From Yuukianura sp. NJ FZ-2021 (taxonomy: Eukaryota), in contig CM102283.1 in NCBI GenBank assembly GCA_046563655.1, positions 3,410,001 through 3,474,000 on the forward strand: DNA of 64,000 nt. The letters are read 5' to 3'. The translations under genes were made by a program, and so were the position numbers. Below the pieces are notes generated by a model. The model had not been told where the DNA came from, searched no databases, and saw only the letters and a list, made by a program, of their open reading frames with translations. Below are positions 4,419 to 18,346 of the stretch, piece after piece. The stretch's first letter is position 1, and every line of letters starts with the position of its first letter.

Positions 4419-6949
<2,531 letters not shown>

Positions 6950-13373: not shown

Positions 13374-15174
13374 ATGGCTAACGTTGTACCACTGGAAACA
13401 AGTGCCAGTACTTCCAGTGATTCAAATCAAACCAAGTCCAAGAAACCTTCAAGTGAGTCCACCACTAACTAAATCTTAAGTTTTAACCAATTTATGAGCA
13501 ACTAAGTTTCAACTGTTTTATTTTCCAGATTCTGCATTTAAGCAACAGAGGCTCGCTGCTTGGCAACCCATCTTAACAGCCGGAACCGTTTTACCTACGT
13601 TTTTCGTCATTGGGATTCTCTTCATTCCTGTTGGAATTGGACTCTGGTACTTTTCAGACAACGTCAGTGAGAAGATCATTGAATACACCAATTGTACGTC
13701 CATGTACAATGAATCCCTGAAGTGTGCCGATGTCATTGACGAATACCAAAGGTCACCTGACGCTGCCAGAGGCATAAAGTTTCCCGAGTGCATTTGTAAA
13801 GTTAATTTTACGCTGGACAAGACGTTCAGGGTAACTGTATTTCCATATTCCACTTACTAAAAAAAACCTAACCTGAGTTAGTTTACTAACGATGAGAACT
13901 AATTAGTAATCGTGTCTTATTTCTAGGGAAAAGTGTATGTGTACTACGGATTAACCAACTTTTACCAAAACCATCGACGATATGTCAAGTCGCGTGACGA
14001 TGCCCAATTATTCGGTGGTACAGATAAGCCTGTAGCGGACTGCAATCCATACGCCATGGAAGGTACTTTGTAATACAATTAAGTTACTATATAGTTACGT
14101 TTCATTAGAAATTGAGGAATTCATGAATCGATTTGGATTGGAAATATTAACTTGTTATGGTATTTCGCAGGTGACAAAATCATTTGGCCATGTGGTGCTA
14201 TTGCCAATTCCATGTTCCAAGATGACATTTCGATTTATTCTTACCAATGCGTTAATCCCAATGAGTGTCCCGTGCTGGTGAACCTAAAACGAACCGGAAT
14301 TGCTTGGGAGTCTGACAAGGCCTACAAGTTCAAAAATCCAGACAACTGGATGTCAGAGGATTTTAAACGAGAGCATGTCAAGCCCAAATGTAAGAATGCT
14401 AAATAAATATTGTGACTAATCGTCTGATTAATCAAATTAATCTTCTGATTCTGATTAATCGACTAAATGTTCTGGTTTTCGTTATAGCTTGGCGAAAAAG
14501 TCCGTGGGAACTAGATCCTGAGAATCCGGACAACAATGGACTCCAGAATGAAGATTTCATCGTCTGGATGAGAACTGCGGCGCTACCGAATTTCCGAAAG
14601 TTGTATCGAATCGTGGATAACAAGGGTGGCTTCCGCGATGGTGTCGCCAATGGAACTTACCATCTACTAATTAACTACTGTAAATCGCAATCAAGTCAGT
14701 CAACTACTGGTCACAATGACAAAGTAACGTCAACGTGTTTTGAATCTATTTTTAGCGTATCCGGTGACAGCCTTTCAAGGAACCAAGTCCGTTATCATCT
14801 CCACAACATCGCTTTTGGGCGGAAAGAATCCGTTCTTGGGCATTTCCTATGTTGTAGTGGGCAGTATATGCCTTGTTCTTGGCATCGTGTTTCTCTTCAT
14901 CCATATCAACTGCGGAAAAAGGTAACGCAACACTTGGAGTTTCAAAAATTTCTAACAATTTTGGAAGAATTCTGTGAAGAATTTTGAAACTTGGGAAGAA
15001 TTTTAAGGAATTCTTTGCAGAATTTTTGACACATTCTTTCAAGAATTTTGGGGAATTCTTTGAAGAATTTTGAATAATTTTTTGAAGAATTCTTTGAAGA
15101 ATCAATTGCTGATCCGTGATTGATTGTTTAGCACATTCGAGATGACAGACGTGAATCCGAGGACACCTTACTGA
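13374..15174 (+). CDS. TMEM30A: CDC50/TMEM30A P4-ATPase beta subunit, conserved paralogue (7 coding exons)
   Basis: [84 protein letters not shown]; last exon 15132-15174 ([13 protein letters not shown]). Confidence 0.93.
14955..15102. repeat. Degenerate GAAGAATT(C/T)T tandem repeat inside the last CDC50 intron
   Basis: About ten imperfect aagaattc/aagaattt units at roughly 12-bp spacing. Confidence 0.6.
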
Positions 15175-15515: not shown

Positions 15516-18346
15516 TTACATCTTAAATCGTTTTGCGTGTGGCTTACTCTTGTTGGATTCGGATTTTTTGGATTTGGTCAATTTCTGTTGGATCTGTGTC
15601 TGGACTTTGTCTTGCAACTTGTCAAAAAATGCTTTTGAAGATTTCAGTTCCTTAGACTTCCCAACTACTGGAGCATCAGTACTTGTTTTGTCTCCCTTCT
15701 TAGTTTTCTTAGCTGAAGAAAGTACATTGTCAGCCAGTTTGACATTCCGAAGTCCGAGACCTTTGACCCGCAACTTCTCTTCGCGGTCAACCCGTTTGAG
15801 ATGCTGCTTTTTCTTCTTCTTCCTTCGGTCTCTGCTCTTGTCAGTCGAATCTCGCTCAGCCTTTCCTTTCAATTCTGATATGAGAGGAGCTGCAGAAAGA
15901 AAACAAAAACGTTTTAACTTTTGTCACCAAGTTTCAACATTTTTTTGAACGTTTGAGTTGCACTAATGTCAGAAACGAGGAATTCCAAAAATGGATTCAT
16001 CACACGAATTAAGTATCACAGAGTATCATCATCTATGTAAGTGCAAAAAAACATGTCCACTTTTAGAAGTTACTCACCTTTAATTTCTTGTGGCGCTAAA
16101 AGTGTGGCATCGCTGACACTCACTGGAGCCACTTCTTCCATTGTGATTGACGGCAGATTGGTCACAATTTTGATGTCACTAACAGCCTAGGGTAAAAAAA
16201 AAGTAATTTAAAGATAGAACTTGACATATGATTTGATATGTTCAAACTTTTCAGAAAAAACTGAAAATCTTACTGGTTTCGGTGTGTAGTGGAAGTTTGA
16301 AAGCGCGTCTAACTTTGCAAAAAGTATTTTCATGTCTTTTTGAATGCGAGCCTCTTCTTCCGGCACTGAATCCACGTCATTCTGTCCTTCCTCTGCCTTC
16401 TTCTGATTGATGTACTCCTGTGTCATTCCAAAAAAGCACATGTTTAGTTCGATTTTCAAAAAAATTAAGAAAAAATTTGTTATGACTCCCAACTAAGTTT
16501 CAGCAACGAGGAATTCCAGATGAAAGTTCATCATGAATTTTATGATGGAAGGTAACATCATAAACTTAGGAAGAAGTTAATAACACAAGTTAAAGTTAAC
16601 GTAACCTAATCGTTTTGTTTAAGAATAACTCACTTGTTCATAAACTTGTGCTAAACTTTGTTTGCTCTTTTCCGAATCCAGGATCAGTTTGTTTTTGTAT
16701 TCGACTGGAGTATCTTTTGGTTTTGCTTTTCTCTCAACGTCGTCCCAAGCCTGATCTTTGATTCTGTTTTTCATGATATCCTCCAACTTCAAAGTCGTTT
16801 TGGCAGTGATCTCAGGAGCTGAAAAACAAAAAAATACTAAAGTAAAACTTATATTAAGAGCAATAAGATAGTTGAAACTACTTCGATTTTTTTCAGTACG
16901 AGGAATTCCAAATTGATGTTTCATCACAGTAAGTAATGTTTGGAAGTATCATCATTTTCTACTAAAATACTAAAAACTGGTAGACTATCATAGTCTATAA
17001 GTTATAGACTTATTGTATAGACTGACCTTGTCTAAGAAGATGATCAAAGATCAGATGTTCTTCAAGGAGTGAGTTTTCTGGACGTTTTTCGGCAGTGATT
17101 TCTCCCTGAAATTGCCACCCTTTAGGCTCTAAAGCTTCTTTTTCTATTTGATCAATCGCTTCCTCCACTTTCTTCCTGCGTTTCTCAAACGTTGATAAAT
17201 TCTGAGGCTCTTGCGTAGTCGCTGAAAGTGAACCAGAAGTTAGCTTATCGGGCGTTGTAGGTTGGTCGTCTTCGGAACTGCTCGAGTCTTCTACTGCTTC
17301 AAGGCCGAGTAGTCCAGCATTTGAGGATTCAATGCCCTCCTCTTCGTCTTCATCTTCTTCAAGGTCATCTTGGTCTTCTTCGTCACTGTCAGATTTGATT
17401 TCTTCTTCTGCTAAAAGTGTATCAGCTGATTGGTCATTGTTATTGGCTGGTGATTGTTCTTCATCTAAGGGTTTGTCAAAGAATTGGTTATAGTAAATGT
17501 TCCTGGAGTCTCCTTCTTCGTTATCGTTCTCGTCTTCTTCGTCATCTAAAGCAGCAAACATGTCTATCGATTCATCTGAGTCTGATTCGTCAACATCTTC
17601 TTCGCCCCGCCCCCTTTTCTCTTCTTCAGCTTCCATTTGATTTTCAACATTTTCCAAGAACTCAGTCATCTGAGCCAAATTGAAAAACTTGTCATCTACA
17701 ATAGACTTGGAATAAGCCTTGCTTTTTGACGAGGATTTCTTCTTTTGTTTCCGGTTTCTGTTCCCCTCAAATTCAAATTCTGAATCTTCATCCTCTTCTA
17801 AAGAATCAGCGATGTCGTTATTCTGCTTCTTCTTCTTGGATAAGCTGGATTCTTCTTTGATAGCTTGAATTTCAATAGCCTGACTCTGAAGTATGTTTGC
17901 TTGTGCTAGTAACTTGGAGATCGATGAGACTAGGTTTTCATACATGAGTCCATTCTGAAGTTGGACTTCTTCCCAGATTTGTTCAGAGTCAAAGGATTCT
18001 GTAATAAGTTGTCGAAGAGGTGCTTCTGTTAGAGCCGCTTTGGCTGCAAGTTTACGTTTCTTCTTAGATCTGGAACTTGAGATACTGGAGAAAGCCAAGT
18101 GCTTAAGGTCACCCGCCGCAACCTCTTCGTCCTTGGTGTGATCGTAAAGGGATTTGAGTACTCCGAGTGACGTAGAAGAAACGTCGTTGCTCGCACTAAA
18201 ATATACAAACAATATTTAGAACCGTAGTTAAGACTTGTAACTTAAAAGCAAGGCTTACATAAACTTACATAAGCATAAACTGACCTCAAGAAATGCTCCG
18301 GTTCGTAGGGTTTTATAGCCTTGTAAATCCTGTTTACATCGCCCAT
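15516..18346 (-). CDS. MPHOSPH10: U3 snoRNP protein MPP10 (6 exons)
   Basis: [111 protein letters not shown]. Confidence 0.95.
15965..16037 (-). ncRNA. Box C/D snoRNA copy A (MPP10 intron 5), guide for 18S rRNA
   Basis: Sense strand ATGATGA(C)...GTGATGA(C')...TGGAATTCCTCGTTT-CTGA(D); guide complementary to conserved 18S AACGAGGAAUUCC. Confidence 0.85.
16493..16569 (-). ncRNA. Box C/D snoRNA copy B (MPP10 intron 3)
   Basis: ctaagtt/aacttag terminal stem, ATGATGT(C), ATGATGA(C'), TGGAATTCCTCGTTG-CTGA(D). Confidence 0.87.
16888..16960 (-). ncRNA. Box C/D snoRNA copy C (MPP10 intron 2), guide shifted by 1 nt
   Basis: ATGATGA(C), GTGATGA(C'), TGGAATTCCTCGTA-CTGA(D). Confidence 0.82.

Follow-up and report, generated by a model that had tools for sequence, protein, structure and literature searches.

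Paralogous box C/D snoRNA candidates in three MPP10 introns with a guide complementary to 18S rRNA beside the m7G site

The MPP10 gene and its intronic box C/D units

The stretch of DNA analysed here, a window of 64 kb, carries on its minus strand an MPP10 gene at positions 15516 to 18346, which was delimited by Pfam matches of its exon pieces to PF04006 and by in-frame splicing. Six exons (18346-18285, 18195-17027, 16818-16634, 16417-16274, 16186-16078 and 15889-15516) are joined across GT-AG introns into an in-frame coding sequence of 2043 nt, and the exon pieces match positions 30-343, 344-405, 405-456 and 497-529 of the PF04006 (Mpp10) profile consecutively, with a best E-value of 3.4e-51, in agreement with the original prediction, which had named MPP10 as the host gene. 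The closest named MPP10 is that of the springtail Orchesella cincta, with 58% identity across the C-terminal half, and named insect and vertebrate relatives show 36-41% identity to the protein encoded in the window; the DNA thus probably comes from a springtail or a closely related hexapod. A CDC50/LEM3-family gene on the plus strand (13498-14925; PF03381 on three exon pieces, best E-value 4e-21) is convergent with MPP10, and between the 3′ ends of the two genes lies a GAATTC-rich tandem array (14957-15102) with a 22-nt unit present in approximately six copies at 73% matches. This array is unrelated to the snoRNA guide described below, though GAATTC is common to both.

Introns 2 (17026-16819), 3 (16633-16418) and 5 (16077-15890) of MPP10, all read on the minus strand, each contain one box C/D unit on the sense strand, with box C to box D spanning 62-64 nt. 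The arrangement of boxes C and C′, a shared 13-nt guide and box D in these three introns, as previously described for this DNA, was confirmed letter by letter, and the layout is in each case box C, approximately 20 nt, box C′, approximately 10 nt, the guide, 1-2 nt and box D. The intron 2 copy occupies 16888-16960 (box C ATGATGA at 16955-16949, box C′ TGATGA at 16926-16921 and box D CTGA at 16896-16893), the intron 3 copy 16495-16566 (box C ATGATGT at 16561-16555, box C′ ATGATGA at 16534-16528 and box D at 16503-16500) and the intron 5 copy 15964-16037 (box C ATGATGA at 16032-16026, box C′ GTGATGA at 16003-15997 and box D at 15972-15969), all on the minus strand. Within the 64 kb the guide 13-mer, TGGAATTCCTCGT, has exactly three occurrences, all of them on the minus strand, at 15975-15987 (intron 5), 16506-16518 (intron 3) and 16898-16910 (intron 2), while with up to one mismatch 0.11 matches would be expected by chance in the window and none of 100 shuffles reached three. 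In introns 3 and 5 two nucleotides separate the guide core, which ends in CGT, from box D; in intron 2 there is one, and a single register is therefore not common to the three copies. The boxes of the intron 3 copy are flanked by a 7-bp terminal stem (CTAAGTT/AACTTAG), and the intron 5 copy has an external stem (TTGCACT/AGTGCAA).

Beyond these units the introns of the window do not align with each other, which bears out the earlier statement that the rest of their sequence is unrelated, and intron 4 (16187-16273, minus strand, 87 nt), which served as an internal comparison, has no such unit. A search of the 64-kb window against Rfam returned no match at gathering score and no rDNA; at E-values up to 10 the box C/D units gave only weak matches to box C/D families unrelated to them, of which sR5 scored highest, at 20.3 bits with the intron 5 copy. 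The DNA contigs of two sequencing runs, X1 and X4, differ so little from the window that comparison with them has little power. Among the 40 substitutions listed for these contigs none falls inside a snoRNA body; those listed include four in intron 5 downstream of the snoRNA (15931, 15944, 15946 and 15947), and an AA insertion is present behind 16044, upstream of box C of the intron 5 copy.

Copies in the introns of related MPP10 genes

Metagenome contigs were scanned with a pattern consisting of box C′, the guide core and box D, which returned 44 loci, and MPP10 exons were sought in all of these by tblastn using the window protein and 120 MPP10 relatives. MPP10 exons were found at two loci alone, L044 and L028, diverged orthologues which encode proteins with 53% and 40% identity, respectively, to that of the window. 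The original prediction had pointed to the MPP10 introns of relatives, and inspection of these revealed three copies at each of the two loci, placed in the counterparts of introns 2 and 3 and of the last intron. In L028 a convergent CDC50 gene is situated downstream of MPP10 as it is in the window, and the retention of this neighbour identifies L028 as an orthologous locus. The remainder of the snoRNA-bearing introns does not align among L044, L028 and the window.

The nine copies obtained in this way have a mean pairwise identity of 0.68 in the RNA body as against 0.30 in the flanks, and the span from box C to box D is 61-64 nt in all nine. All of them have a box C (RUGAUGA) towards the 5′ end, which reads AUGAUGU in two of the nine, and a box D (CUGA) towards the 3′ end. 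Invariant positions comprise the UGAUG core of box C, box D, the 13 guide positions and, in box C′, four positions (UG..GA). Box C′, found in every copy, reads UGAUGA in five and UGGUGA or UGGAGA in the other four. Box D′ is degenerate (CWUA or AUUA), and the element between box C and box D′ is only loosely conserved, with a recurring UUCC; in view of these two properties, the element upstream of D′ is probably not a second guide. The duplex energy of the flanks, taken as a measure of a terminal stem, is matched by no more than 6% of shuffles for four copies, and for the other five it does not improve on shuffles. With the covariance model R1 the window intron 2 copy scores 57.6 bits, being itself one of the training sequences.

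The position of the units relative to the splice sites is also conserved. In the window, the end of box D lies 74 nt (intron 2), 82 nt (intron 3) and 79 nt (intron 5) from the 3′ splice site, and the corresponding distances in L044 and L028 are 73, 74, 83, 86, 75 and 75 nt, where splice sites were deduced from tblastn borders and GT-AG dinucleotides, the donor of L028 intron 2 being the least certain. The distance is thus 73-86 nt in all nine introns, whereas that from the 5′ splice site to box C varies between 28 and 72 nt. A location some 70-80 nt upstream of the 3′ splice site is reportedly optimal for splicing-dependent box C/D snoRNAs, a result ascribed to Hirose and Steitz (2001), and the spacing seen here fits such an optimum for splicing-coupled box C/D snoRNP assembly.

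At the 40 variable columns of the body, a copy is no more similar to the others of its own genome than to those of other species, and the best cross-species pairs join copies of the same intron: the window and L028 copies of intron 3 agree at 0.67, and the window and L044 copies of intron 5 at 0.58. This pairing of same-intron copies across species hints that the triplication is older than the split of these lineages. Separately, the L044 copies of introns 2 and 3 (1460-1523 and 1821-1883) have nearly equal spacers following box C′, AATAACTAAT and AATAACTATT, and this near-equality points to gene conversion, or a later duplication, between introns 2 and 3 in that species.

The 18S rRNA target and the register of the guides

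The guide TGGAATTCCTCGT is antisense to the 18S rRNA segment AACGAGGAAUUCC, as read against published 18S sequences. In PMC3064781, the predicted binding site of yeast snR57 is given as 18S positions 1569-1583, where it guides Gm1572 and overlaps a Nep1 site, and G1575 is given as the nucleotide that is N7-methylated by Bud23; the assignment of snR57 to Gm1572 is confirmed in PMC4344503. On the published 18S sequences, the earlier proposal that the guide is antisense to the 18S segment containing Gm1572 (snR57) and m7G1575 (Bud23) is upheld. The antisense element of at least 10 nt, ending beside box D, that characterises box C/D snoRNAs is represented by the invariant 13-nt guide, the rRNA complementarity of which is to published 18S sequences and to the snR57 site. 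Two published oligonucleotides include the same 13-mer, an ITS primer for moths that is anchored in 18S (PMC3376038) and a probe for yeast rDNA (PMC12900514), and it recurs in the literature, as far as article titles convey, in many works on 18S rDNA of protists, snails and fungi.

According to the D+5 rule, as stated in PMC11014333, the position that would be methylated can be read from the gap between guide and box D. With a gap of 2 nt, as found in window introns 3 and 5 and in seven of the nine copies overall, the fifth position is a C which pairs with the G of AACGAGG, the equivalent of Gm1572, and with a gap of 1 nt, the case for window intron 2 and L044 intron 3, a T takes that position and pairs with the next A. 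The original prediction had placed D+5 of two copies, A and B, on the G1572 equivalent; this holds if A and B are the copies with guides at 15975 and 16506 (introns 5 and 3), but for the intron 2 copy, with its guide at 16898, it is wrong, the register there being displaced by one nucleotide. The register was calibrated on plant snoR8a, using the RF01284 consensus AAUUCCUCGUa+CUGA. AtsnoR8a/b are assigned to the Arabidopsis RiboMeth-seq site Am1579 in PMC8583080, in the table of which Arabidopsis 18S numbering equals that of yeast plus 6 (Gm1434/Gm1428 and Cm1645/Cm1639); on that numbering, A1579 corresponds to yeast A1573, the nucleotide next after G1572. By their D+5 registers the copies in the window are consequently two predicted guides of the yeast type and one of the plant type.

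Interpretation and comparison with known snoRNAs

The units in the window are very probably genuine intron-encoded box C/D snoRNAs of approximately 70 nt, representing old paralogues made from introns 2, 3 and 5 of the MPP10 pre-mRNA. Anatomy, conservation, splice-site spacing and complementarity to published 18S sequences are established at the level of sequence, and from these we infer processing, snoRNP assembly and methylation; as real, conserved and previously unannotated snoRNAs the copies are well supported by the comparison across loci. Following the textbook pathway, Snu13, Nop56, Nop58 and fibrillarin would assemble on the C/D kink-turn during splicing of the host transcript, and debranching of the lariat, followed by trimming, would leave the snoRNP. 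Pairing would then form between AACGAGGAAUUCC in the 3′ major (head) domain of the 18S rRNA and the 13-14 nt stretch that directly precedes box D, allowing fibrillarin to 2′-O-methylate the nucleotide facing the fifth guide position counted back from box D. The predicted target of the copies in introns 3 and 5 is the G equivalent to yeast Gm1572 (snR57 type), and that of the intron 2 copy would be the adjacent A equivalent to Arabidopsis Am1579 (snoR8a type).

Yeast snR57 shares with the window copies its target segment (18S 1569-1583) and, for introns 3 and 5, the predicted methylated nucleotide (PMC3064781, PMC4344503). In both, the guide lies upstream of box D; the window copies probably have no active guide adjacent to the C′/D′ pair, in keeping with snR57, the C′/D′ motif of which has been described as not adjoining a guide (PMC3116282). 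The window copies differ from snR57 in being intronic in a protein-coding gene and in being present threefold. To our knowledge yeast snR57 is not intronic. Homology of the window copies to snR57 beyond guide and boxes could not be demonstrated, and no Rfam model matched them. Plant snoR8a/b (RF01284) have in common with the window copies the antisense core AAUUCCUCGU, and their 1-nt CGU-CUGA register is that of the window intron 2 and L044 intron 3 copies, while snoR8a differs in that its guide lies upstream of box D′ and in that it carries a second guide (Um1264); RF01284, with a gathering score of 37 bits, was not matched by the window copies even at E-values up to 10.

The genomic arrangement resembles the Drosophila clusters with one snoRNA per intron, in that each intron likewise carries one snoRNA and several paralogues reside in one host gene. 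Of the snoRNAs expressed in Drosophila S2 cells, 95% are intronic and many are clustered, and 30% of host genes encode ribosomal proteins (PMC13228274); in flies, intronic clusters hosted by genes with translation-related functions are the rule. The host in the window is MPP10, as compared with the translation and ribosome-biogenesis hosts described for Drosophila; a literature search that covered titles and the opening parts of abstracts found no report of MPP10 introns harbouring snoRNAs. It is an ordinary and expected arrangement for a ribosome-biogenesis gene to carry several snoRNA copies in its introns, and the expression "expanded guide family", which had been used for the three copies, is a fair description of them in that ordinary sense.

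That the copies are not snoRNAs, and instead derive from a dispersed repeat, a transposon fragment or a splicing element containing the palindrome GGAATTCC by chance, is a reading to which we attach hardly any probability. GAATTC-rich tandem repeats are located close by (14957-15102) and no Rfam family matches, as such an origin might lead one to expect, but a model built from the nine copies, which match it by construction, finds nothing else above 12.8 bits in the 64-kb window, the copies occupy the same introns in three species with intron flanks that are otherwise unalignable, and the boxes, the lengths and the spacing from the splice sites all conform to the box C/D class. If the copies are snoRNAs, their main task might be binding, so that they cover the 18S rRNA over the m7G site and abut the Nep1/Emg1 site, acting as a chaperone or timer of SSU head assembly, with three copies raising the dose and the MPP10 host coupling that dose to SSU-processome output. 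Deletion of snR57 in yeast removes the need for Nep1, and release of snR57 is discussed as possibly required for Bud23 methylation of G1575 (PMC3064781), and the three copies are kept in all three species examined. All nine copies nevertheless possess a canonical box D and a guide giving the D+5 nucleotide, as methylation guides do, yeast and Arabidopsis do methylate the target spot, and nothing in the sequence calls for a non-catalytic function; we regard a predominantly binding role as improbable.

The choice is much closer for the two shifted copies, in window intron 2 and L044 intron 3, and we see about an even chance that these are register-slipped, redundant or decaying paralogues instead of dedicated guides for the adjacent A. 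A single-base loss between guide and box D suffices for the shift, which affects different introns in the window (2) and in L044 (3); both of these loci retain two G-register copies each, and all three copies of L028 are in the G register. The one-nucleotide shift of the intron 2 copy could accordingly be a tolerated slip and not the mark of a working Am guide. Against decay, neither a box nor any part of the 13-nt guide has been lost from the shifted copies, whose scores of 57.6 and 59.1 bits are like those of the others, both being training sequences of the model, and plants methylate the adjacent A through the same register; the window intron 2 copy is, moreover, closest to the shifted L044 copy, albeit weakly (0.49 over the 40 variable columns). 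A more elaborate proposal, in our judgement an unlikely one, is that the paralogues of the window share out the work, two copies directing the yeast-type Gm and one the plant-type Am on its neighbour, which would yield two adjacent 18S ribose methylations, three and two nt upstream of the m7G at the P/E site ridge, and that these copies are made in step with MPP10, their binding and release helping to time the action of Nep1 and Bud23 in SSU head assembly.

Read as genuine snoRNAs, the copies add a conserved, unannotated snoRNA family for a poorly studied animal lineage, the nearest named MPP10 being that of a springtail. Their predicted target suggests that ribose methylation beside the 18S m7G site, represented by Gm1572 in yeast and Am1579 in plants, also occurs in an arthropod-like lineage. 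In this family, furthermore, nature supplies a clean example of paralogous guides distinguished solely by a one-nucleotide shift in register.

All 44 loci of the metagenome scan were sorted into classes by eye. Besides the two MPP10 loci, four (L001, L012, L035 and L039) are of the plant snoR8a type; the Rfam scan was applied to L001, which matches RF01284 at 56.7 bits (gathering score 37), and L012, L035 and L039 are identical to L001 in the matched sequence and the 70-nt upstream flank. Six further loci (L016, L020, L027, L022, L010 and L029) appear to be further eukaryotic box C/D snoRNAs, with a guide in the G register, and the remaining 32 look like coding or chance matches, mostly GC-rich, with L003 and L017 read as a conserved protein-coding stretch. 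On the minus strand of L001, at 5368-5849, a plant-like cluster comprises snoR97 (68.8 bits), the above snoR8a and an incomplete snoZ278, which at 30.4 bits stays under the gathering score of its family. L020 (1154-1847 and 3553-3593) and L027 (273-965 and 2673-2713) each contain two snoR38 copies (RF00213, 49.6-53.9 bits) together with an unannotated box C/D unit that bears the 18S guide of the MPP10 copies in the G register, with no MPP10 nearby, and these units look like a snoRNA gene cluster of another eukaryote.
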